From contig NZ_CP043314.1 of NCBI RefSeq assembly GCF_008189525.1, positions 450,001 through 482,000 on the forward strand: a stretch of DNA of 32,000 bases. The letters are read 5' to 3'. How positions within the stretch are numbered: the stretch's first letter is position 1; each line of letters starts with the position of its first letter. This document shows, in pieces, positions 7,885 to 32,000 of the stretch. The stretch is from Candidatus Saccharimonadota bacterium (GTDB taxonomy: Bacteria > Pseudomonadota > Alphaproteobacteria > CAJXXZ01 > 1604HC). The position numbers and the translations under genes are program-made. The notes beneath the pieces were generated by a model. It saw nothing but the letters and a program-made list of their open reading frames with translations, did not search any database and was not told the DNA's origin.

Positions 7885-8985
7885 TTACTCTCCTTTACTA
7901 TCAGAATCTTTAGATTTAGACTCTACCTTATCTACTTTTATAGAACTTACAGAATCATCGCTTAATTTTTTTTCATCAATCTTTGAATCATTAGAAGGAA
8001 TATTTTTCTTTTCTACAGAAATCTTTGAATCAAATTCAGGCTCAGTTTTCTTTGCAACAAACTTTGTTTCAAAAGCATCTCTTCTTTCTCTAGGTCTAAA
8101 AGATTCTTTTCTGTAATCTCTATTAAATTCTCTAGGATTTCTTCTTTTCTTACTTTCGACTTCTTTGCTTTTCTCAGAAATTTTAATTTGTTCATCATGT
8201 ATACCTAACAAACAAGCAGAGGCACACAAAGAGCTGAAAAATTCTATTGATTTCATCGCATCATCATTTCCTGGAACAGGGTAATCTATAGAAGCAGGGT
8301 CAGCATCCGTATCCATAAGAGCAACAACAGGAATTCTTAACTTAATAGCCTCTCTAATTGCAATATTTTCTTCCTTCCATGAAGTTACAACTATTGCATT
8401 AGGTAAACCGTGCATATCTTTTATACCAGAAAACATTCTTTTTAAGTTAAAAAGCTTTTTGTTTATTTTTGATTGCTCATGCTTTTTATATTTTTTGAAA
8501 AAACCTTCTTCTATTTTTTTCTCTAAATCTTTCATTCCTTGAATTGAAACTGAAACTGTATTCCAGTTTGTCATCAAACCACCGGGCCATCTGTGGTTCA
8601 TGTAAAATTGACCACAATCTTCTGCAGCTTTCTTAACAACTTCTTTTGATTGATATTTAGTCCCAACAAAAAGAACTCTTCCACCATTACATGTAATTTT
8701 TCTCAAAAAAGATAAAGCATCCTTAAACAAAGGAACTGTTTTGGATATATCTATCACATGCATGTTTCCTACTGTACCGAAAACATAAGAATCCATTTTA
8801 GGATTTAGTTTTTTTGTATTGTGTCCAAAATGAAATGCATGATCCTTCAAATCAAATACATTAAATTTAATTATTTCCTCTATATTTTTACTTGATTCAG
8901 CTTCTTCAGATTCAGAATCCTTTGATTCAGTTTCCTTCTCTACTTCTTTCTCAGAATCTAAATTCTCTTGCTTTTGAATATCCAT
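7885..8985 (-). CDS. rpsB: 30S ribosomal protein S2 with acidic N-terminal and ~100-aa charged C-terminal extensions
   Basis: Core is HFGHNTKKLNPKM...MHVIDISKTVPLF...VLFVGTK...NHRWPGGLMTNW...PVVALMDTDADP...YPVPGNDDAMKSIE. An AAGGAG Shine-Dalgarno (8990-8995, minus strand) lies 4 nt upstream of the ATG at 8985. Confidence 0.95.
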   Translation of the reverse strand: MDIQKQENLDSEKEVEKETESKDSESEEAESSKNIEEIIKFNVFDLKDHAFHFGHNTKKLNPKMDSYVFGTVGNMHVIDISKTVPLFKDALSFLRKITCNGGRVLFVGTKYQSKEVVKKAAEDCGQFYMNHRWPGGLMTNWNTVSVSIQGMKDLEKKIEEGFFKKYKKHEQSKINKKLFNLKRMFSGIKDMHGLPNAIVVTSWKEENIAIREAIKLRIPVVALMDTDADPASIDYPVPGNDDAMKSIEFFSSLCASACLLGIHDEQIKISEKSKEVESKKRRNPREFNRDYRKESFRPRERRDAFETKFVAKKTEPEFDSKISVEKKNIPSNDSKIDEKKLSDDSVSSIKVDKVESKSKDSDSKGE

Positions 8986-9349: not shown

Positions 9350-12300
9350 TTAAGAAGGGTTGTTTTGAGCAATAAAGTGCTCATCATTAATCTCTCTGTT
9401 CACTGTATTGAAAATTATCTCAATCTTTTTAAACGCATCTAATGCATTATTAGACTCTGCTCCAGAAGGAAGGTTTGAATATGATGCAAATTTTTCAAAT
9501 CTTTCTGTTTCTTTTAGTGAGCTCAAGTTCCTCAAAGAAACATTGCCATCTGCATTCTTAGCAACATTCAAGTAGTATTTGAATGTTTTTTGTGATTCAT
9601 CTTTGTATTCAACTCTCTCAAGTGAAATCTCACTGTCATCATTGCTTAGATGAATCTGTGCTTGACCTTCTCCAAACGCACGTTTCAAAACTGTTTTGAA
9701 GTTTGCTTCATTAAACATAGCACCATCTATAATAATTATTCCATCTCTGTTCTTTTTTAAGTATGTAGCACAAACACTCTGTGGAACATTTATTCTATAG
9801 AACTTGTTTTTATCAATATCTCTATTTGCGTTAATATCACCTTTAGAGAACTTTAAGTCATACAAGTTAACATGCAATTCAATTTCTTTCTTGTCTCCAT
9901 TAGTTACAGCTCTTGCAAAAGCATTTGTAGTCAAATCCATATCTTGATATTTAGCATGTGTTTGTCTTACAACTGCATGAAGTTTCTGATCACCTGTCCA
10001 CTTTGGATCATAAATAGGCTTCAATTCAGTTAGATTGTTATCACTACTATCTTCATCATATCTTTCAAATAAATCAGAATCCTTAACCAAATTATCACTT
10101 GATTCTAGCTCATCAATGCTTGTTAAGTAATCTGTGGTTTTGATTAAAATTGAATCATTGTTTTTTTCTGAATGTGTTATTCCTTTCTCTAGATCAACAA
10201 CCTTAACCATAAATGCTTTTTTAAATGCTGATGATTTAGATGATTTCTCTACAGAATCAAATAATTTTGCTATGTTAACCGTTAATGCATCATCCAAAAG
10301 AGTTTTCAATCCTTCCACATCAACTATACTGCTAGTATTACCTGACTCTAAATTATTATTTAAGTAGCTTTCAGCTATAATTTTTATATCAGAACTCAGT
10401 TTTGAAAAGCCTTCTACAAAATCACTTAAAACTCCAGAAACCTTTGTAAGATCATTATCATCTGAAGCTGTTCCAATAAGCATTCTATTTGATCCGTGAG
10501 CAGCGCCAGGTTTTGTTATTTTAAGAACAAGAGAATCAAATCTGAATAATGATTGAGCTGAGATACCTAAGCCTTCAAATCTTTCATAAGCAATTAAGTA
10601 ATCTTTAACTCCATCTACTAGGTTGGCAAAGTCTCCGCTACCACCTACATTAACCAGCCTTGCATTTTCATCTCCAAAGAATTCGTTTACATATCTACCA
10701 AACACTCTTGCTTCTGGATTTTTTAAAATTGATGACAATGTGGAAATTGAGTTTAACCTATCTTTAATTGCTTCATATGAATCTAACTGATCTTTTACAC
10801 CATCCTTATCCCAAACATTAAATAGTAATTTATAAACAAGTATTCCCTCTTTATCGTTAGAATTAGACTCCAATAAAGGCAAAAAGCGATTTTCTATATT
10901 TAAAATAACACCTGGTTCAGATCCATTTACCCCTAGTGCTTTCAAAGGAGCAAATAATGTTTTGGATATTTCAAAACTTAATTCGCTCTTAGATCCATCT
11001 GGGAATGTATTAGAGATGATTTTACTAGCCTGTTCTAAAATTTCAATCAAAGAATAGAATGAGAAAAGATTATCACCACCCAAACTATCTACATTGTGTG
11101 ATTTCTCTACACTGTAAATCCTATCAAATAAGTCAAATGATTCTGATAAAGTATCGTTCAAAGCATTCATTCCAAGTTTAATTGTATTACTATCTTTGCT
11201 GTTCTTTATTATATTTTCAGTAATTGCATTTAACCTACCAACAAAAGCATCCTTTGCATTCTGTTCTGAAAAGTAGGATGAATTTATCTTCTCATTTAAG
11301 TAAGACTTAAACACAGCTTCTAGTAGCTCTGTGTTATACCCTGATGATAAAATTTCACCTACAGTGGAGCTTTCTCTATCTTTTAGCAACATTTCTAAAA
11401 CAGCATCCACAGTATTATCTAAGTCCTCTGCTTGGCCTAATTTATATTCTTGAGTGATTTCGTGAATCTTTTTCCCATATTCTACTGCTAAATCATAAAC
11501 TGTATTCATATCAGTAAGTTTAAAACCAATTGCTTTATCTTTATTTTCCAACTCTATTTTTTCTAAATCTGCTTTCAAAAGATCTACGACCTTAGGGTTT
11601 TCTGCATATAGTTGTGCAATTTTTTCAAAAATTTCTAAACTTAAGTCACTTTTTTCCATTATACTATGGAACAATGCAGATCTAAATGAATCTTTTAGTG
11701 CTTCATCAGATCCACTATTAACAGTGTTGTAAATTCGTTTGTTATTGTTATTGTTAATTATATCTCCAATAAAATCGACTTTACTACCAATTTCTTCCAA
11801 AGATTTACCTTGATCTGTTACAGACAAAATATGTACTAACAATTCATCTCTTCTTGCATCATTTCCACTAAGTCCTAAGTAATCTACAATTTCAGATTCC
11901 AAGTTTTCTAACTTTGTAAATACTTCACTAAAAGCTTTGTAATTTGATACATTTATATCCAAATCATTAAACAATACATTGTTTTGTTCATCTTTTACAT
12001 CACTTAATTTTGTACCTTCAAATTCTAAATCTGAATAATATGCTTTAACTATCTCTGCTTCAGCTGCTGCAAACTTTTCTAAAAACACGCCTCTAGATTT
12101 AGCTATTGCACCAGAAACCCTGCCATCTAAAGTAGCTAAATCAGATGATTTATCATGTAAAACTACACGAATAGGATAAACTACTGCATTCACATCATAC
12201 GAGCTAAGTTTAATTCCCTTATAAGATAGCATATCACTATATGTTTTCCCTATTTCTTCAATGAAATGTGTAGCTTCTTTTAGTGCAAGTGATATTGAAA

Positions 12301-13765
12301 CATATTCTTTTGCTGACACATCAGAATCGCTGTACAAATACTCAAATTTACCTAACACAGAGTTTGTTCCATCAGCATTTTTATAGCTATTGTTTAGTTC
12401 TTTAATCAATGAAATTAATGAATTTGATTCCAATCCTTTTGTTACGTAATTACCAATAAAAACCTGAACATCTGATTCTGTGTCAAGTCTTACATCCAAA
12501 AGTTCTGTTTTGAAACTTTCGAAAGTTCTATCTGAATCAGCTAAAAATAAAAAGTTATGCAAGTTTTGTGAATAAAGTTTGTCTGCTGCTTTGTTTATAA
12601 ACCCAGAACTAAATAGATCTGCAAAAAAACTTTGATAAGATTCTGTTGAAAAATTACGACTCTCAAATGCTCTTAAACATAACTCAGTTACTTCAATAAC
12701 TCTTTTTGAAATAGTTTCTTTACCATCTGCTGTGTTCTTTGAGTCCATTTTTTCCTTACGTAGTACATTCATTTTATCAACGAACCATCTAACAGCATTA
12801 ATCATTTCTTGAGCTTCTTTTACAGACTTAGCTTTATCAGCTTTTGAGTCAGAATAGAAAAATGCATCATTTATAGCTCTTTTAATTCTATAAGGCTCAT
12901 AACTCTGTAGATTTTGATCTCCAATTTTAAAAGATAAGGATCCTTCAGGCAAATCTAGCTCCTGCACTACTTTATTTCTTATTTCGTCATAGCTGTCATG
13001 AATACTAACGTCAGAATACCCAAATCTCTGTGCAAAGCCTGGAGCTGCATCAGCAGAGAACCTTAATAGCTTTTCATCAGCTATTGAGATGTCTATGTTT
13101 AAATTAGTCAAATCAAACTCTTCTTTAGTTGATGCTTCTAATAAGTCCATTGAGTAAGTTGAGTTCAAGAACATTATCACATCACTAACCTTCTTCTCTG
13201 AATCTGTACTTACAGCAAAAAGATCATAAAGACTAAGTGGGTTTTCTCCAACTTGTGCAGTCAAATTTAATCCCCACACTCCATCAGCTTTACTGATATC
13301 ATATAAACTTTGATTTCCATTAGATTGTCTAGAAACTAATACGAATCTACCATCGTAAGATCCTATTGAACCCATTCCTAGTCCGTACGCAAAGCTATGC
13401 AAAGCTATGAATTTATTTCTTAAATCTACAGCCGGTTGATTTTGAGATCCAGTGAAATCTATTGCAGGAATAGTTCCATTTTCAAAAGTTATATTTAAAG
13501 CATTAGAAGTAATTTGCCCTTTATCATTAATAAGCTTGTGCTTGTTTTTGAATTCGTATTTAGTTTTTTGATCTAATTTTCCTGCAATACCCCTGACATC
13601 ACTTTCCAAAATAACTGGATACTTTGTCTTTTTTGAACTGCTTTCTGTGTAGAATAATCCAGTTGAAAGAATATCTATATCCCCAGCAGATATATTAGCT
13701 ACTGACAGCAGAAGAAGTGCTGACATAAGCTTAGTGTTTGTTTTGTTGTTTTTATACCTAGTCAT
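9350..13765 (-). CDS. Very large (1471 aa) hypothetical exported/surface protein, no recognisable domains
   Basis: Single uninterrupted ORF in AT-rich DNA. The N-terminus MTRYKNNKTNTKLMSALLLLSVANISA/GD has a basic n-region, a hydrophobic core and an A-x-A-like cleavage site. I count only two Cys in 1471 aa. I saw no internal repeats and no autotransporter-type C-terminal aromatic residue. Confidence 0.7.
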   Translation of the reverse strand: MTRYKNNKTNTKLMSALLLLSVANISAGDIDILSTGLFYTESSSKKTKYPVILESDVRGIAGKLDQKTKYEFKNKHKLINDKGQITSNALNITFENGTIPAIDFTGSQNQPAVDLRNKFIALHSFAYGLGMGSIGSYDGRFVLVSRQSNGNQSLYDISKADGVWGLNLTAQVGENPLSLYDLFAVSTDSEKKVSDVIMFLNSTYSMDLLEASTKEEFDLTNLNIDISIADEKLLRFSADAAPGFAQRFGYSDVSIHDSYDEIRNKVVQELDLPEGSLSFKIGDQNLQSYEPYRIKRAINDAFFYSDSKADKAKSVKEAQEMINAVRWFVDKMNVLRKEKMDSKNTADGKETISKRVIEVTELCLRAFESRNFSTESYQSFFADLFSSGFINKAADKLYSQNLHNFLFLADSDRTFESFKTELLDVRLDTESDVQVFIGNYVTKGLESNSLISLIKELNNSYKNADGTNSVLGKFEYLYSDSDVSAKEYVSISLALKEATHFIEEIGKTYSDMLSYKGIKLSSYDVNAVVYPIRVVLHDKSSDLATLDGRVSGAIAKSRGVFLEKFAAAEAEIVKAYYSDLEFEGTKLSDVKDEQNNVLFNDLDINVSNYKAFSEVFTKLENLESEIVDYLGLSGNDARRDELLVHILSVTDQGKSLEEIGSKVDFIGDIINNNNNKRIYNTVNSGSDEALKDSFRSALFHSIMEKSDLSLEIFEKIAQLYAENPKVVDLLKADLEKIELENKDKAIGFKLTDMNTVYDLAVEYGKKIHEITQEYKLGQAEDLDNTVDAVLEMLLKDRESSTVGEILSSGYNTELLEAVFKSYLNEKINSSYFSEQNAKDAFVGRLNAITENIIKNSKDSNTIKLGMNALNDTLSESFDLFDRIYSVEKSHNVDSLGGDNLFSFYSLIEILEQASKIISNTFPDGSKSELSFEISKTLFAPLKALGVNGSEPGVILNIENRFLPLLESNSNDKEGILVYKLLFNVWDKDGVKDQLDSYEAIKDRLNSISTLSSILKNPEARVFGRYVNEFFGDENARLVNVGGSGDFANLVDGVKDYLIAYERFEGLGISAQSLFRFDSLVLKITKPGAAHGSNRMLIGTASDDNDLTKVSGVLSDFVEGFSKLSSDIKIIAESYLNNNLESGNTSSIVDVEGLKTLLDDALTVNIAKLFDSVEKSSKSSAFKKAFMVKVVDLEKGITHSEKNNDSILIKTTDYLTSIDELESSDNLVKDSDLFERYDEDSSDNNLTELKPIYDPKWTGDQKLHAVVRQTHAKYQDMDLTTNAFARAVTNGDKKEIELHVNLYDLKFSKGDINANRDIDKNKFYRINVPQSVCATYLKKNRDGIIIIDGAMFNEANFKTVLKRAFGEGQAQIHLSNDDSEISLERVEYKDESQKTFKYYLNVAKNADGNVSLRNLSSLKETERFEKFASYSNLPSGAESNNALDAFKKIEIIFNTVNREINDEHFIAQNNPS

Positions 13766-14007: not shown

Positions 14008-14574
14008 TTATTGATTTACTTTAATAATCTTTCTAGTCAAAAAGAATTTTTCTATTTCTGATTTAATTTCTTGATAAGTACTTTGTACAATTTCTTTTTT
14101 AACCAAAAATAAAATTATTTGCTCCGTTTTCTCTAGTTCATTAGAATTAAAAATCTCATCTAAAGCACTTTTAATGCGACGTTTTATTTTATTTCTAGAG
14201 TGAGCTTTTCCGATTTTCTTTTTTACAATTATACCTATTTGTACATATTCTTTTATTTGTAGATTAGAGTTTATATTATTAAAATCACAAGGCATTAAAC
14301 TGTCCAAATTATGATTTCCAAAATCTTTACAAGTATTATCTAAGTTTAAATCTATATTGGAGTCTAACAGAGAATTTCTCTCTAAAACTCCATAACAAGA
14401 CATATTTTTATCTTCAGCAGAATTACATGAATTATGTTTTAAATTTTGTGTATTAATATTGGGTATATTAGAATTTTTTCTATATCTAATCGAAAATATA
14501 TCAGTAAAAAATCCTTTGCTCTTTTTCATAGAAAGAAAAGTATGGCTAGATTTGATTATAGAATATTTACGCAT
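14008..14574 (-). CDS. rnpA: RNase P protein component with ~75-aa low-complexity insertion
   Basis: The RNR motif IGKAHSRNKIKRRIKSALDE (cf. AHERNRIKRLTRE) is preceded by VQIGIIVKKK. The gene lies downstream of rpmH on the same strand. The N-terminal strand FFTDIFSIRYRKN is separated from the core by an N/S/D-rich stretch. Confidence 0.8.
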   Translation of the reverse strand: MRKYSIIKSSHTFLSMKKSKGFFTDIFSIRYRKNSNIPNINTQNLKHNSCNSAEDKNMSCYGVLERNSLLDSNIDLNLDNTCKDFGNHNLDSLMPCDFNNINSNLQIKEYVQIGIIVKKKIGKAHSRNKIKRRIKSALDEIFNSNELEKTEQIILFLVKKEIVQSTYQEIKSEIEKFFLTRKIIKVNQ

Positions 14575-23149: not shown

Positions 23150-25333
23150 TTATATAGGAAGCAATGAGCTTACTATTCTCTTCATTTTTATATTTTTCCT
23201 TATAACTGGATCAGATACATCACCCTCTACTACAAAATTCAAATCGTGATTTTCCTTATTAACCAGTCCAGATATTTCATTAAACACTGTTCTGGATTGC
23301 ATTCTTCCATTTATAAAAATTTTATTATCCTTACTTAAATACCCTTCTCCATCAAATACAGAAAACACATTGGAAAGTTTAAACTCTTTTATATTATATT
23401 GTCCATTTATTAAGCTTCCTGAGCACTCGAAAAGATCCCAAGTATCTCTGCTGTACTTCATCATTTTAGTCCAATATGTTATAGAAAATAGATTTATAAA
23501 AATGGAATCTAACTTTGCTTTAGTTCTCATATCTTTTATTTTGAAATCCCAGTCTATAACTTTATTAGAAAAATCAATGCTCCCCAACAAATGCCCACCA
23601 TTCTTAACTAAGTTATTTTCAGACAACAGTGAAATCATTTTACCAAAATCAAAAAGCTCAATATTCACAAGTAGCCCATTCTTACTCCAGAGATATATAG
23701 GTTTCTTATCACAATAAGCCTGAAATACTATTGCAGAGTCACTAGTTTTTTTGGTATTGAATATCAAATGAGCATCATCCAAGTATAGATTCCCATGCAC
23801 AAAAATTTCTTTGAAAAATGAATCAATAACAACTGAAACTCCCAATCCAGGACCTTTAAACATGCCCAAATCAACAAGATTGCAATTAAAGTAATTACCC
23901 TCACTTTTTACAAACATGTTCATGCTTTGATCAAAATACCCAGAGCCCTTCATATGAACCTGAGAAGTATCTATGAAGAAATTAAAATCAGTTTTTCTCA
24001 AATTAATCTTAGAGCTGACCTGCAAATTACCAGAATCAATTTTGACATAACTTTTATCACCCAGAGCAACACTCCACTTCAAGTGTTTTTGATGTAAATC
24101 CAAGCAGTTCAAATGTATTTCTTGAGTCTTTGAGCTGTTTTTGCTAGTTATTTCTATTCCATTTTCATTGAATTGAGCTGTAAAAGAAAGATCTAAGTAA
24201 CATTTATGATCACAGAAATCATGAGATTTTATAAACCCAACACCAATCCCATCATTGTATTTAAATCCAACTTTTGTTCCATTGAAATCTTTACAAGAAA
24301 AATCAACCTTATCAAAATTACAATATTTATTAACGAAGTTAACTTTTTTGTTCTTTATACAATTCTTTAATTTTGTTTTTCCAGTGGCATGTTTTTTAGA
24401 GTTACTTTTCAGTTTGTTTCCAGATTTAGAGCTATTATCTCTTTCATATTTTTTCTCTTTAGCTTCTGCGAAGCTTGTGTTTAATTTTTCCACACAAGGC
24501 TCATCTAAATAATATAAACATTCTTCATTTTTACTTTCATTATCTATATGAATATTATCAGAGCCTAGACTGTTTTCTGAATTTGTTAAGCTATTACTAT
24601 TGTCAGAGATTCTATCATTGATTGTGTTATGAAGATCTGGAGTGTTAGGTGTATTGCAACTCTTTAATCCCTCGCTTGAACAATCAACCTCTTCATTTTT
24701 CTTAAAATCTGTAGTTTGCTTTAAACATCTTCTTGCAAGTTTTCCAAAAGAACTGCTTTTTATATTCTTGCTCAAATTCAACTGCAAAGATTCATTTCTA
24801 AAGTTCAGCAAGAAAGAATTATCATTTATCAACATGAACCCCTTAGAGTTTTTTTCAAAAGTGATTTCTAAGCCCTTGCTTTCAGAAAATAAAAACCTTC
24901 CCCCACAATTAAACCCTAAAACGCTAAAATCATAAACATAATTATCATCTAAATAGAAATAAGAGATTTTTTTATTGGATTTACTTACCTCAATCTTGAC
25001 CCCATCTCTGTAGTCACATAGCAAACCAAATTCGCTTCCGTATAGAGTTAAGTTTTCCATAACTAAGTTTTGTTTATTTAAATTTGCTTCTATTTTTTTT
25101 ACAGAGAAATCTTTAGAAACAAAACCTTTTAATCCAAAAACATTGTTTTTAAAATATATTTCCTGAAATTCAGATTTTGTTCCAATTAAAAAATCAAAAC
25201 TCTTTCTGTACAAAGATGTAAATATAGCAAATATGATCAAATAATTAAAACATGAAATTGTAAACACTAAAGTACTAAAGAACTTCCAAGAAAGTACAGC
25301 CATGAATCTAAAGAAATTTTTTAAAATTTTCAT
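23150..25333 (-). CDS. Membrane-anchored 727-aa hypothetical protein (possibly AsmA-family)
   Basis: N-terminal TM segment (FSTLVFTISCFNYLIIFAIFTSLY), long predicted periplasmic body, central S/N/K-rich low-complexity region. The C-terminal ...VVEGDVSDPVIRKNIK... resembles the AsmA_2 ending (G.l.nP.v). The family assignment is weak. Confidence 0.4.
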   Translation of the reverse strand: MKILKNFFRFMAVLSWKFFSTLVFTISCFNYLIIFAIFTSLYRKSFDFLIGTKSEFQEIYFKNNVFGLKGFVSKDFSVKKIEANLNKQNLVMENLTLYGSEFGLLCDYRDGVKIEVSKSNKKISYFYLDDNYVYDFSVLGFNCGGRFLFSESKGLEITFEKNSKGFMLINDNSFLLNFRNESLQLNLSKNIKSSSFGKLARRCLKQTTDFKKNEEVDCSSEGLKSCNTPNTPDLHNTINDRISDNSNSLTNSENSLGSDNIHIDNESKNEECLYYLDEPCVEKLNTSFAEAKEKKYERDNSSKSGNKLKSNSKKHATGKTKLKNCIKNKKVNFVNKYCNFDKVDFSCKDFNGTKVGFKYNDGIGVGFIKSHDFCDHKCYLDLSFTAQFNENGIEITSKNSSKTQEIHLNCLDLHQKHLKWSVALGDKSYVKIDSGNLQVSSKINLRKTDFNFFIDTSQVHMKGSGYFDQSMNMFVKSEGNYFNCNLVDLGMFKGPGLGVSVVIDSFFKEIFVHGNLYLDDAHLIFNTKKTSDSAIVFQAYCDKKPIYLWSKNGLLVNIELFDFGKMISLLSENNLVKNGGHLLGSIDFSNKVIDWDFKIKDMRTKAKLDSIFINLFSITYWTKMMKYSRDTWDLFECSGSLINGQYNIKEFKLSNVFSVFDGEGYLSKDNKIFINGRMQSRTVFNEISGLVNKENHDLNFVVEGDVSDPVIRKNIKMKRIVSSLLPI

Positions 25334-25421: not shown

Positions 25422-25925
25422 TTATATAGGATTTATTATAACAGAAACTCTAGCCCTCTCTTTAGGAACTCTAGAATCTGCTTTTCCTACATCATTCAAA
25501 TTCTCTATAAACTTATTTAAAACATTTTTTACGTTATCATCCAAATGAATCAATTCTCTTCCTCTAAATTTAAGAACTATTTTCACCTTATGTCTCTGCT
25601 CTAAAAATTTCCTAGCCCTGTTTATTTTTGTCATTAAATCATTTTCACCTATATTAGGTCTGATTTGAATTTCTTTTAGAGCTTGTACTTTTTCTTTCTT
25701 TTGTTTCTTTTGCTTATATTTCTCTTGATTGTAATCCATGACTTTACAAATAGGCACATCAGAATCAGACATTTTCACCAAATCTAACCCTTTGTCTTTG
25801 GCGTATTGCAAAGCAGAAAAGAAAGGCATTTCCCCTAGATTATCACCCCCATGAATGACAACAACTCTCTCTGCCCTTATTTCCTTATTAATTAGATCTT
25901 TTTTCTGCTTTTTTTTACTCTTCAT
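25422..25925 (-). CDS. infC: Translation initiation factor IF-3
   Basis: INKEIRAERVVVI...LGEMPFFSALQYAKDKGLDLVKMS...VPICKVMDYNQEKYKQKKQKKE...KEIQIRPNIGENDL..K....FLEQRHKVKIVLKFRGRE. It lies immediately after thrS, as in the canonical thrS-infC operon. The start codon is uncertain because IF-3 often uses non-ATG starts. Confidence 0.9.
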   Translation of the reverse strand: MKSKKKQKKDLINKEIRAERVVVIHGGDNLGEMPFFSALQYAKDKGLDLVKMSDSDVPICKVMDYNQEKYKQKKQKKEKVQALKEIQIRPNIGENDLMTKINRARKFLEQRHKVKIVLKFRGRELIHLDDNVKNVLNKFIENLNDVGKADSRVPKERARVSVIINPI

Positions 25926-27816
25926 TCTTTCCCTTCAATTTTATCACTAAATCTTCTAGACTCAGCTGCTCTTGATTTCCTTCTATATCCCTTAAAGTCA
26001 CCAAACCTTTTTCCATTTCTTTCTTACCTATTACTATCAAATTAGGCACTCTTTTTTCTATGTACTTTCTTATTCTATAGCCAAGTTTTTCAGAGTGATC
26101 ATAATCTTCTAAACATTCCAAATCAAGGCCCTTAAGTATCTTTTTGATTTGTTTAGAAAAATCTTCAGCTTCTTTTACTAAAGGAAGTACTACAAATGGC
26201 GCTGGATGAACCCAAGCAGGAAGCAAGCCTTTTGTGTTTTCTATTAATATTCCTAAAAATCTCTCCAAAGAACCTAAAGCTGCATGATGAACTATAATCG
26301 GAGTTTTTTGAGATGAATCAGAGTCTGTATAAGTAGCTCCAAGTCTCTCAGCCAAAGAAAAATCTACCTGAACTGTTCCACATTGCCATACATGCTTCCT
26401 TTTGTCACATATAGAAAACTCTAATTTAGGACCATAAAAAGCACCTTCTCCTGGATTGATTTCACATTCTAGGTCACATTTATTTGCTGCTTCTTGCAAA
26501 GCTGACTCAGCCTCAGACCAAGAGTCATCATTTCCTATGTATTTCTCTGGTCTTGTAGATAACTTTACTTTTAACTCTTCAAAACCAAACTTCCTATAAA
26601 TCTCTTTAAGCATCTCACAAAAAGAAACTATAACATCAGTAATTTGATCTTCCATACAAAATACATGAGCATCATCTTGAGTAAATGCTCTTGTTCTCAT
26701 TAATCCATACAAAGAACCTGATGGTTCATATCTATGGCAATAACCAAATTCTGCTAGCCTAAATGGCAAATCCCTATAGCTTCTGTTTCTAAATTTAAAC
26801 ATATTTATATGAGCAGGACAGCTCATTGGTTTTAGAGCATAAGTTAGCTTGTCGAGATTAACAAACATCATATTTTCTTTAAACATCTCTTCATGACCTG
26901 ATTTTTTCCATAGATCTGAAGCCATTAGTACAGGTGTTTGCACTTCAGAATAGCCATACTTATCCCACATTTCTCTAATAAAGGTTTTCATTTTATTAAT
27001 AACCTTCGTTCCATTTGGAAGCCAATTGATCATTCCATTAGAAACATCATGATCTACAAAGCATATATCCATATTTTTGCATATATTTCTGTGATCCCAT
27101 TTTGCATTTTCTTCTAGCTCATCTAAATATTTTTTCAAATCTTGTTTGTTATGCCAAAAAGTACCAACTATCCTCTGTACATTCTGATAATCATATTTTG
27201 AACTCACACCTGATATTGAAACTAGTTTGTAATTATTACCTACATTTTTGGTGTTATTACCACATGCTTTAGAACACACAACCTTGTAATCACCTATTGA
27301 ACATATATTAATAGGTTCCTCACCTAGCAAGGAAATAAAACCTCTAGCGAAAGAATTATCTTCTTGATCAAAAATTTCCAAAGCTTCTTCTTTAGAATAA
27401 ACACTTTTACTAATAGCAGTTGATTTTCCTGTAATAACATTCATTTGCTTTTCTATTTTTTCGAAATCATTCTGAGAAACAGGATTTTCAGAGTAAAACT
27501 CTAGATAAAAACCATTCTCCAAAACTCCAGTTTCAATTATCTCTGCATCATCTTCGTAAATCTCTTTTATAGACTTAGAAAGGACATTAGCAGCATCTTG
27601 TCTTAATATAATTAAGTGGTATTCAGATCCTTTTTTGATTGGTTTAACAGAAATATGACCTGTCAATATACTATGCAAGTCATAAATATCGCCTTCATCT
27701 ACTGATCTAAACCCTACTATACCTTTTCCCTGGTCCCCTAAACTTTCCACAATTGCTAAAGCAGAAATACCAGATCCAAATTCCTGACTTCCATTTTCTA
27801 AACAAACTTCTATCAT
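25915..27816 (-). CDS. thrS: Threonyl-tRNA synthetase (full length)
   Basis: The class II core and anticodon-binding domain are collinear with E. coli ThrRS: DHRNI...KPMSCPAHINMF...SYRDLPFRLAEFGYCHRYEPSGSLYGLMRTRAFTQDDAHVFC...LSTRPEK.IGNDDSW...GEGAFYGPKLEF...WQCGTVQVDFSL.ERL...PIIVHHAALGSLERFLGILIE. Confidence 0.95.
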   Translation of the reverse strand: MIEVCLENGSQEFGSGISALAIVESLGDQGKGIVGFRSVDEGDIYDLHSILTGHISVKPIKKGSEYHLIILRQDAANVLSKSIKEIYEDDAEIIETGVLENGFYLEFYSENPVSQNDFEKIEKQMNVITGKSTAISKSVYSKEEALEIFDQEDNSFARGFISLLGEEPINICSIGDYKVVCSKACGNNTKNVGNNYKLVSISGVSSKYDYQNVQRIVGTFWHNKQDLKKYLDELEENAKWDHRNICKNMDICFVDHDVSNGMINWLPNGTKVINKMKTFIREMWDKYGYSEVQTPVLMASDLWKKSGHEEMFKENMMFVNLDKLTYALKPMSCPAHINMFKFRNRSYRDLPFRLAEFGYCHRYEPSGSLYGLMRTRAFTQDDAHVFCMEDQITDVIVSFCEMLKEIYRKFGFEELKVKLSTRPEKYIGNDDSWSEAESALQEAANKCDLECEINPGEGAFYGPKLEFSICDKRKHVWQCGTVQVDFSLAERLGATYTDSDSSQKTPIIVHHAALGSLERFLGILIENTKGLLPAWVHPAPFVVLPLVKEAEDFSKQIKKILKGLDLECLEDYDHSEKLGYRIRKYIEKRVPNLIVIGKKEMEKGLVTLRDIEGNQEQLSLEDLVIKLKGKNEE

Positions 27817-28532
27817 TAAATACCTTGTTTTTTCTGGCTTAAGTAATTTTTCAGATCTGCTTCAGTAGGCCAGTAAGTTCCATATATTCTCTGCATTTTT
27901 ATAGAACCATCATATAACCAAGAAGACTCACCTATTCCAAGAATCTCAAAATTATGACCTAAGAAATCATTATTAGTTGTTCTTGGCCCACCACAGATAT
28001 CTATATATCCACCATGAGAATAAAGCATCAAGCTTTCTTTCTTGCAATTCTTAACTATGTCAACCTTAAAGCTATCATTTTTAAATTCTCTCAAGCTTTT
28101 TGATTTAGACCAAATTTCCCTTAATATAGAATCTTTTCTTTCTATTATTTGAGACATTCTAAATTCTATTGCTGGAAAATCAGATTCACTAACTTTTTTC
28201 TCAGATATAAAATCAAATCCAAAAATAGATTCTTCATCGAAATATTGCTTTCCATACTGAACACCATCAAATAAATCTGACAATGCCTGAGCCAGAACAT
28301 GAGCTATATCATGCCTAAGCATATGCAAAGCTTCTTTGTCAGTTCTTCTGATAGGCTTTACTTCCTCTCCTTCAGGAATTTCAGAATGAAGGTCGTAAAC
28401 CTTTTTATCTCCTTCTGAACAAGAAACAAATCCTAATATATCAGAAGATAAACATAGCTCTTTAACTAACTCAAAGCATTTTATGCTTCTCCCAATGATT
28501 TTTTGACCGCTAAGTAAGTTTATTTTTACCAA
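27816..28532 (-). CDS. Stand-alone ThrRS N-terminal paralog (TGS + editing/second-additional domain only)
   Basis: The 238 aa are collinear with residues 1-~240 of ThrRS and retain LRHDIAHVL and YIDICGGP. The ORF ends at ...QRIYGTYWPTEADLKNYL, just before the point where the catalytic core begins in ThrS. It has a TTG start at 28532 with AGGAGG (28538-28543, minus strand) 5 nt upstream, and its TAA overlaps the thrS ATG (TAATG). Confidence 0.8.
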   Translation of the reverse strand: MVKINLLSGQKIIGRSIKCFELVKELCLSSDILGFVSCSEGDKKVYDLHSEIPEGEEVKPIRRTDKEALHMLRHDIAHVLAQALSDLFDGVQYGKQYFDEESIFGFDFISEKKVSESDFPAIEFRMSQIIERKDSILREIWSKSKSLREFKNDSFKVDIVKNCKKESLMLYSHGGYIDICGGPRTTNNDFLGHNFEILGIGESSWLYDGSIKMQRIYGTYWPTEADLKNYLSQKKQGI

Positions 28533-28703
28533 AGAACCCTCCTAATAAGAATTATAAGACAATAACAACCACATTAAAATACCATTTTTGACTAAATTCA
28601 TAATATTAAACCTAACTAAATAAACAGGCTATTAATTTTGCTAACACTTACAAAAAACAAAGAAACTCTTTTAAACTAAATAAAAAGGAGATATTTTTAT
28701 ATC

Positions 28704-29919: not shown

Positions 29920-32000
<2,081 letters not shown>

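Follow-up and report, generated by a model that had tools for sequence, protein, structure and literature searches.

The trans-editing factors known at present include AlaX for alanine, YbaK/ProXp for proline, DTD for D-amino acids and, for threonine in archaea, ThrRS-ed. Here, a candidate of a different make is described from a 32,000-nt stretch of DNA, analysed as a whole and called the window below, which belongs to Candidatus Nesciobacter abundans, a Holosporales endosymbiont of the diplonemid Diplonema japonicum with a genome of 616 kb. Three consecutive genes lie on the minus strand of the window: a free-standing module of 238 aa derived from threonyl-tRNA synthetase (ThrRS), which was labelled S; then thrS, encoding the adjacent full-length ThrRS of 633 aa, labelled T; and then infC. 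Probably, S acts in trans as a deacylase of Ser-tRNA(Thr) and takes over the cis-proofreading that the neighbouring ThrRS has lost. This proposal had been made in an earlier note written from the DNA letters alone, and it is supported at the level of comparative sequence analysis by residues, conservation and synteny. S adds a variant to the known trans-editing systems, one confined to a small clade. Bacterial-type ThrRS editors that stand alone are absent from a review of editing factors of 2024 (PMC11295145), and neither this review, nor the genome paper, nor the literature found by targeted searches describes the S-thrS arrangement; the note, too, knew of no characterisation of it. Residue positions are quoted in E. 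coli ThrRS numbering, unless marked as codons of S or T.

The crenarchaeal pair ThrRS-cat/ThrRS-ed likewise places the proofreading of Ser-tRNA(Thr) on a separate polypeptide, according to the passages devoted to it in PMC3592468 and PMC11295145 (after Korencic et al., 2004). As characterised there, ThrRS-ed combines an archaeal DTD-like fold with an anticodon-binding domain, whereas S is composed of the bacterial N1 (TGS) and N2 (editing) domains and has no anticodon-binding domain; ThrRS-cat is devoid of any editing domain, whereas T retains a full-length but catalytically eroded N1-N2. At E<=0.001, the structures matched by S in Foldseek were ThrRS N1-N2, mL39, AlaRS, AlaX and AlaX-like proteins, none of them described as DTD-like, and the Ser-tRNA(Thr) hydrolase model NF011500 matched only the anticodon-binding region of T, not S. 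The logic had been likened in the note to AlaX or to ThrRS-cat/ThrRS-ed, rebuilt from the bacterial N1-N2 module, and this comparison stands, S belonging to neither family by fold or profile.

Closest in logic is the T1/T2 pair of Anabaena, in which a bacterial ThrRS with a degenerate N2 relies on a paralogous N2 in trans (PMC4787780). However, the editor of Anabaena is a whole second ThrRS (T1 monomers), while S corresponds to the N-terminal third only and shares a putative operon with the synthetase. T1 heterodimerises with T2 under zinc limitation (PMC4787780). Anabaena T2 keeps the HxxxH and DxCRGPH motifs but carries an insertion, whereas T of the Nesciobacter clade has lost the motifs. 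The ThrRS of Mycoplasma, as presented in the part of PMC4787780 that deals with it, is likewise a case of a reduced genome with a degenerate cis-editing site; that part describes no replacement editor, mistranslation being tolerated, whereas here the editing residues are preserved by purifying selection in a dedicated additional gene.

AlaX and AlaXp are free-standing proteins with the ThrRS-N2 editing fold that hydrolyse Ser-mischarged tRNA (PMC11295145; PMC11260482; PMC12003907). AlaX is derived from AlaRS, coordinates zinc through HxxxH/CxGxH, lacks the TGS domain (N1) and has Leu, Thr or Val at the position of Tyr173. S differs in all of this, as N1 and Tyr173 are present and the last zinc ligand is missing. 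The same domain content as that of S is found in the engineered N1-N2 fragments of the E. coli and yeast enzymes (1tje; PMC3592468; PMC12003907), but these are laboratory truncations, whereas S is a natural, separately translated and independently evolving gene product.

By BLASTP, S and T share 31% identity along 236 residues (E=4e-30), the alignment being colinear and beginning at residue 1 of each protein, and phmmer comparison of S with the ThrRS structures 1nyq, 1qf6 and 1tje gave E values of 4e-22 to 8e-18. The C-terminus of S aligns to about residue 236 of T, directly ahead of the WDHR that opens the catalytic core. Thus, the paralogy of S to the first ~240 residues of T that the note had claimed, with the peptides quoted for it, was recovered, as was the end of S before the core. 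The AGGAGG ribosome-binding site of S and the overlap of its stop codon with the thrS start (TAATG, one base shared) were likewise found where the note had read them; the start codon itself, on which the note was silent, is TTG.

The retention of the editing site was assessed by HMMER alignments to the ThrRS structures of E. coli, S. aureus and S. maltophilia and by MAFFT alignment with canonical ThrRS, all of which agree. Opposite IRHSCAHLL, ESYKVSIL and YVDMCRGPH of E. coli, S reads LRHDIAHVL, DSFKVDIV and YIDICGGPR, and T reads LRQDAANVL, NSFARGFI and YKVVCSKAC. Residue by residue, S and T carry, respectively, H and Q at H73; H and N at H77; F and L at Y104; K and A at K156; Y and C at Y173; D and V at D180 (V179 of T); C in both at C182; and R and C at H186 (R184 of S, C185 of T). 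Among the eight S proteins recovered, H73, H77, K156, Y173 and C182 are invariant, and D180 is kept in seven, with Glu in the remaining one. Among the eight T proteins, none has both histidines and none has K156, Y173 or D180; position 156 is A or I throughout, and C182 is kept by Nesciobacter T only. The substitutions in the T editing site differ lineage by lineage, as is expected under relaxed constraint on this region.

These alignments bear out the note in finding both histidines of T replaced and its Asp lost, and the rigorous alignment by which the note had proposed to refute the idea shows T to lack the catalytic residues not in this genome only but across the eight orthologues, apart from the C182 of Nesciobacter T. 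K156 and Y173, absent from the list of the note, follow the same pattern as HxxxH and D180, being kept in S and lost in T. For S, the note was right about HxxxH, the Asp and the Cys, but not about the final His of its D-x-C..H element, which is Arg: the DxCxGxH motif is incomplete, with D (7/8) and C (8/8) kept and the last residue replaced in 8/8. In the portion of PMC4041444 that reports on E. coli mutants, the editing kcat falls 7000-fold in H73A and more than 500-fold in C182A/S. T is therefore expected to be inactive in post-transfer editing, whereas activity is expected of S, provided that Arg186 does not disable the site. Arg186 might keep the stabilisation of the thiolate while abolishing the inhibitory zinc site, or it might weaken editing.

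The one S orthologue with Glu at D180 (Logan SRR12358675, its C-terminus also present on contig L003 at 2-136) reads FLTHDTAH and YIEICGGPR, and it has Thr for the Arg that precedes H73 as well, which could be real variation or a sequencing error from low coverage.

The changed residues also bring another substrate into consideration. There is a small chance that S is an active aminoacyl-tRNA deacylase of changed or broader range, for example a general Ser-tRNA deacylase that accepts Ser-tRNA(Ala) as AlaX does, its pairing with thrS being historical. The replacement of H186 by Arg, of Y104 by Phe and of IGP by GKQ remodels the surroundings of the pocket, S has a weak similarity to the NCBIfam AlaXM model (E=0.013), and in eukaryotes AlaX acts as a hydrolase on many Ser-mischarged tRNAs, Ser-tRNA(Thr) among them (PMC11260482). 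However, the score of S on that model (NF040865) is 15.3 bits against a cut-off of 300, and AlaX structures match it with template modelling (TM) scores of only 0.44-0.52, which places it outside AlaX. In addition, S keeps Tyr173, the residue that tells the ThrRS editing domain from that of AlaRS and from AlaX (PMC12003907), and the serine-recognising D180; it is derived from thrS and always adjoins it.

Profile and structural comparisons assign distinct roles to the two proteins. T is a bona fide ThrRS, with 529.7 bits on TIGR00418 (cut-off 383.65), Pfam matches to tRNA-synt_2b (E=2.9e-49) and HGTP_anticodon (E=1.4e-14), and 460 bits against the ThrRS structure 6vu9. The aminoacylation-site motifs KPMSCPAH, QDDAH and HHAALGS are retained in alignment with solved ThrRS, and T should therefore be active as a synthetase. 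S, which reaches only 68.8 bits on TIGR00418, is not a ligase. T gave no Pfam match to TGS or tRNA_SAD. In AlphaFold2 (AF2) models, S was obtained with a mean local confidence (pLDDT) of 93.2 and a pTM of 0.90, and residues 1-240 of T, at a pLDDT of 95.5, took the ThrRS N1-N2 fold, the input alignments having included canonical ThrRS, which favours such an outcome. Both proteins are thus modelled with confidence as ThrRS N1-N2, and T is predicted to retain a folded "pseudo-editing" domain. By Foldseek, S and the T N-terminus both best match the N1-N2 of ThrRS (6vu9, 1qf6 and 1tje; TM 0.79-0.87, root-mean-square deviation 2.3-2.8 Å), S giving TM 0.80/0.85 to 1tje and 0.87 to 1qf6.

After ThrRS, the next-best Foldseek matches for both were mL39 (MRPL39), then AlaRS and AlaX. 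mL39, whose chain identity was taken from PDB molecule names, literature searches for a link between mL39 and ThrRS having given nothing usable, is likewise a natural free-standing protein of TGS and ThrRS-N2-like domains, but it serves as a structural, non-enzymatic component of the mitoribosome in eukaryotes, whereas in S the editing residues are kept. Its TM scores against S and the T N-terminus are 0.63-0.73. For S, the values of 0.67-0.73 lend some weight to a view on which we would place a little less credence than on a broadened substrate range, namely that S is conserved for a non-hydrolytic role, for example by assisting ThrRS in a structural or regulatory capacity, by binding tRNA(Thr), or by associating with the ribosome as mL39 does. 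The linker helix, which in ThrRS packs against the core, is retained in S, and the Arg at H186 could mean a non-catalytic site. Yet no part of S is less conserved than the linker helix (32%), the sequence similarity to mL39 is non-significant (profile E=0.06-0.2), and the residues of hydrolysis are invariant, D180 in 7/8, despite only ~30% identity of S to canonical N2, a pattern that is difficult to account for unless S is catalytic.

The distribution of S was studied by several searches. When 1.84 billion representative proteins were scanned exhaustively with HMMER, only two representatives fell below E=1e-30 with S. A profile search found eight members of the S family at E<=5e-99; the next matches, ordinary and mostly partial ThrRS, start only at E=2e-38. 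The eight originate from Nesciobacter, Cytomitobacter primus (two assemblies), C. indipagum, the complete 558-kb metagenome-assembled genome (MAG) HK-STAS-PROT-4, a 619-kb circular metagenomic contig and two short contigs. With S alone as the query, a word-indexed protein search returned S itself only, and a pattern search of metagenome contigs gave 113 matches, none of which was confirmed; a scan of genome contigs with a two-sequence alignment recovered the HK-STAS-PROT-4 MAG and otherwise the ordinary thrS of unrelated bacteria. In current annotation, the S genes are called "hypothetical protein" or "TGS domain-containing protein"; S of the window is identical to a Nesciobacter protein labelled in this way.

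Wherever flanks exist, the gene order is UDG and an Fe-S protein, followed in the opposite orientation by S, thrS, infC and a long ORF without Pfam match, and the operon-like S-thrS-infC unit is present in each of the seven relatives found. Downstream of S, thrS is complete in every case (623-658 aa) and, in this clade, gives no Pfam match to TGS or tRNA_SAD. Both domains are matched in nearly all of the remaining ThrRS listed (39-42% identity), while two lack the TGS match only. The signal GGAGG-N5-TTG upstream of S is kept in every genome with a complete 5' end, that is, the window and the contigs L029, L030, L002 and L034. Such a conserved non-ATG start beside a strong ribosome-binding site suggests that the expression of S may be tuned relative to ThrRS. 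The signal lies at about 3275-3296 in L029, 3262-3282 in L030, 5994-6009 in L002 and 4002-4016 in L034, and in two records the start of S is miscalled, either as a GTG or as an ATG inside the Shine-Dalgarno sequence. The junction with thrS is an ATGA overlap in L034/L031 and a gap of 19-39 nt in the other relatives, so that coupling of the overlap type is confined to two lineages. A fusion of S and T through frameshifting or readthrough was considered and rejected, because the junction varies across genomes from an overlap of 1 or 4 nt to gaps of 19-39 nt.

That S is a decaying pseudogene relic, or a product of faulty assembly or annotation, for instance a thrS split by a frameshift, is highly improbable, and the conservation and residue data already refute it in practice. 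Pseudogenes do occur in reduced endosymbiont genomes, split thrS genes that mimic a free-standing TGS and SAD module exist on metagenome contigs (L032, L033), and S has no precomputed Pfam match. Nevertheless, a complete ThrRS of 623-658 aa, not a missing half, follows S; S is intact upstream of thrS in every recovered relative, in eight independent assemblies at 42-75% identity; and its ribosome-binding site and TTG start are conserved. Pairwise pN between S genes is 0.19-0.38, well below a pS of 0.63-0.83; synonymous sites are saturated in every pair compared (pS 0.60-0.83) and several dS values are infinite, so that dN/dS is unusable as a number and the direction, which is that of purifying selection, is qualitative. 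Intact orthologues, invariant catalytic residues and low pN together contradict the recent decaying duplicate that the note had itself envisaged as an objection; all the computational checks that it had named as able to refute the idea were carried out, and the idea survived each of them.

Two other candidates for a free-standing TGS and tRNA_SAD protein, P0283 and P0375 from long metagenome contigs, were rejected, each being a single thrS split by a frameshift. In them, TGS and tRNA_SAD ORFs of 288 and 333 aa are followed by ThrRS-core ORFs of 366 and 308 aa (L032 3001-4948; L033 3001-4925). This survey of other bacterial free-standing N1-N2 genes was non-exhaustive and consisted of the inspection of these two long-contig candidates. 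Frameshift-split thrS genes of this kind could be mistaken for free-standing editing modules.

The conservation of the two copies is complementary. Against a hidden Markov model of canonical N1-N2, S scores 126-153 bits and T 71-143, compared with 375-412 for canonical sequences; S is as distant from the canonical domains as T, and its retention of the catalytic set is therefore selective and not a by-product of slow evolution. The mean identity of N1 is 47% among S and 62% among T, that of N2 is 59% and 42%, respectively, and that of the T core is 66%. In 21/21 genome pairs, which are phylogenetically non-independent, N2 is more conserved in S than in T and N1 more conserved in T than in S.

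In a bootstrapped neighbour-joining tree, the S and T clades are each supported at 100% and their internal branching is congruent, and both copies have therefore co-diverged since before the common ancestor of the clade. In this tree, S, T and the remaining ThrRS form a trichotomy, which is compatible with S and T being sisters or not. The residue at position 186 is more informative on this point: Arg is found in 8/8 S, in 5/8 T and in 0/372 other ThrRS homologues, 358 of which have His. Since it is present in all S and most T and absent elsewhere, H186R predates the duplication, and the shared Arg186 marks a duplication within the lineage. A partial tandem duplication followed by reciprocal degeneration would be the simplest history. 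H186R would have arisen in the ancestral thrS; the 5' third of the gene (N1, N2 and linker) would then have been duplicated in tandem in the ancestor of Nesciobacter and Cytomitobacter; and finally the fused copy would have kept N1 and the fold while losing the catalytic residues of N2, and the free copy would have preserved the active site of N2, with constraint on its N1 relaxing.

With S as a trans-editor, the following mechanism may be proposed. S, thrS and infC would be co-transcribed, and S translated from its own GGAGG-N5-TTG site. T would charge tRNA(Thr) and, as every ThrRS does, produce Ser-tRNA(Thr) at the usual low rate, which it could not correct. S would bind the mischarged CCA end and hydrolyse it through a pocket of the H73/K156/D180/C182 type, either after the release of Ser-tRNA(Thr) from T or while docked on T. 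As a precedent, an isolated fragment of yeast ThrRS (residues 1-310, comprising the N-extension, N1 and N2) deacylates Ser-tRNA(Thr) alone, albeit less efficiently (PMC3592468).

Several points weigh against S as the replacement editor. It scores below the Pfam gathering threshold for tRNA_SAD (12.8 bits against a cut-off of 24) and has no TGS match. Other conserved stretches are changed in S, IGP to GKQ and FYYD to FGFD, and its Arg186 departs from a CxGxH motif described as invariant across life (PMC12003907); the E. coli mutant H186A has its editing kcat reduced 70-fold, in the same portion of PMC4041444. Since R186 is older than the duplication, the ancestral enzyme might itself have been a weak editor. 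Only thrS, and not S, was found in the host transcriptome protein set. Finally, fidelity might be secured in T by another route, such as pre-transfer editing, and Mycoplasma and similar bacteria of reduced genome tolerate the loss of ThrRS editing, as stated in the section of PMC4787780 that concerns them.

Taken jointly, we lean slightly, and with less assurance than for trans-editing by S as such, towards S being the first natural free-standing trans-editor of Ser-tRNA(Thr) that is derived from ThrRS with the bacterial-type N2 fold, that arose by partial tandem duplication of thrS with reciprocal loss, and that works with an Arg186 site. If so, keeping N1 in cis and N2 catalysis in trans would be a case of subfunctionalisation or of constructive neutral evolution, with one gene added to an endosymbiont genome of 0.56-0.63 Mb, and Arg at the "invariant" fourth residue of HxxxH/CxGxH may bring insensitivity to zinc inhibition or an altered sensitivity to oxidants. 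Even in an endosymbiont of ~0.6 Mb, selection for the proofreading of Thr codons is seemingly strong enough for an additional gene to be retained, in contrast to Mycoplasma, where ThrRS editing decays. The eight genomes offer a dated, replicated natural experiment in the conversion of a cis domain to a trans factor by duplication and reciprocal degeneration; the way in which the two copies divide conservation between them, N1 in T and N2 in S, is a handle on the poorly understood role of TGS/N1; and H186->Arg is a natural variant for models of C182 activation, zinc inhibition and oxidant sensing (PMC4041444; PMC12003907). The features of the locus are collected in Table 1.

Table 1. Features of the S-thrS-infC locus, in positions of the 32,000-nt window.
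Feature	Position	Strand	Basis
S: ThrRS N1(TGS)-N2(editing)-linker-helix module, 238 aa, TTG start	27816-28532	-	ORF, paralogy, homology, AF2
Shine-Dalgarno AGGAGG of S, 5 nt ahead of TTG	28538-28543	-	read from sequence
S start codon TTG	28530-28532	-	read from sequence
S HxxxH codons (S H74..H78 = E. coli H73/H77)	28299-28313	-	alignments; 8/8 S
S K156 codon (= E. coli K156)	28065-28067	-	alignments; 8/8 S
S D178-I-C180-G-G-P-R184 codons (= D180, C182, H186->Arg)	27981-28001	-	alignments
S R184 codon (H186 position)	27981-27983	-	alignments
T C185 codon (H186 position)	27262-27264	-	alignments
TAATG junction: S stop TAA 27816-27818 and thrS ATG 27814-27816, one shared base	27814-27818	-	read from sequence
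thrS (T), 633 aa, whole ORF	25915-27816	-	ORF
T residues 1-240: N1 and N2, the latter eroded in its catalytic residues (predicted "pseudo-editing" domain)	27097-27816	-	alignments, AF2
T catalytic core and anticodon-binding domain, canonical	25915-27096	-	Pfam, TIGR00418
infC (IF3), last recognisable gene of the S-thrS-infC unit	25422-25925	-	ORF; IF3_N/IF3_C Pfam on identical gene

The end of thrS and infC overlap by 11 nt. After infC, in the usual place of rpmI-rplT, stands a 727-aa ORF without Pfam match (23150-25333, minus strand), and an ORF of 563-594 aa, also without Pfam match, occupies the same place in all relatives (L002, L003, L029, L030, L031 and L034). A scan of the operon region for promoters and terminators gave 10 promoter-like matches against 19.2 expected from shuffled sequence, that is, no excess. 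On the other side of the locus, the 23S rRNA gene (29921-32000, minus strand), ~125 nt past the UDG gene, is cut by the end of the window.

Elsewhere in the window, a 1471-aa ORF (9350-13765, minus strand) has no Pfam match at E<=0.001 and stands amid housekeeping genes, with rpsB, tsf, a pyrH-like kinase and frr on one side of it. The ORFs of the RNase P protein (14008-14574, minus strand; 188 aa), with its Pfam match confined to residues 108-178, and of S2 (7885-8985, minus strand; 366 aa), with its match at residues 50-259, are apparently extended, unless their true starts lie downstream. With respect to T itself, a EukProt Trinity transcript (P0151) encodes a stretch of 385 aa with 100% identity to the C-terminal portion of the ThrRS of the window, and symbiont thrS mRNA is therefore present in the host transcriptome assembly. 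A pair of tRNA genes, tRNA-Met(CAT) and tRNA-Thr(GGT), lies at 2639-2796 on the plus strand, the tRNA-Thr being a candidate substrate of T and S.

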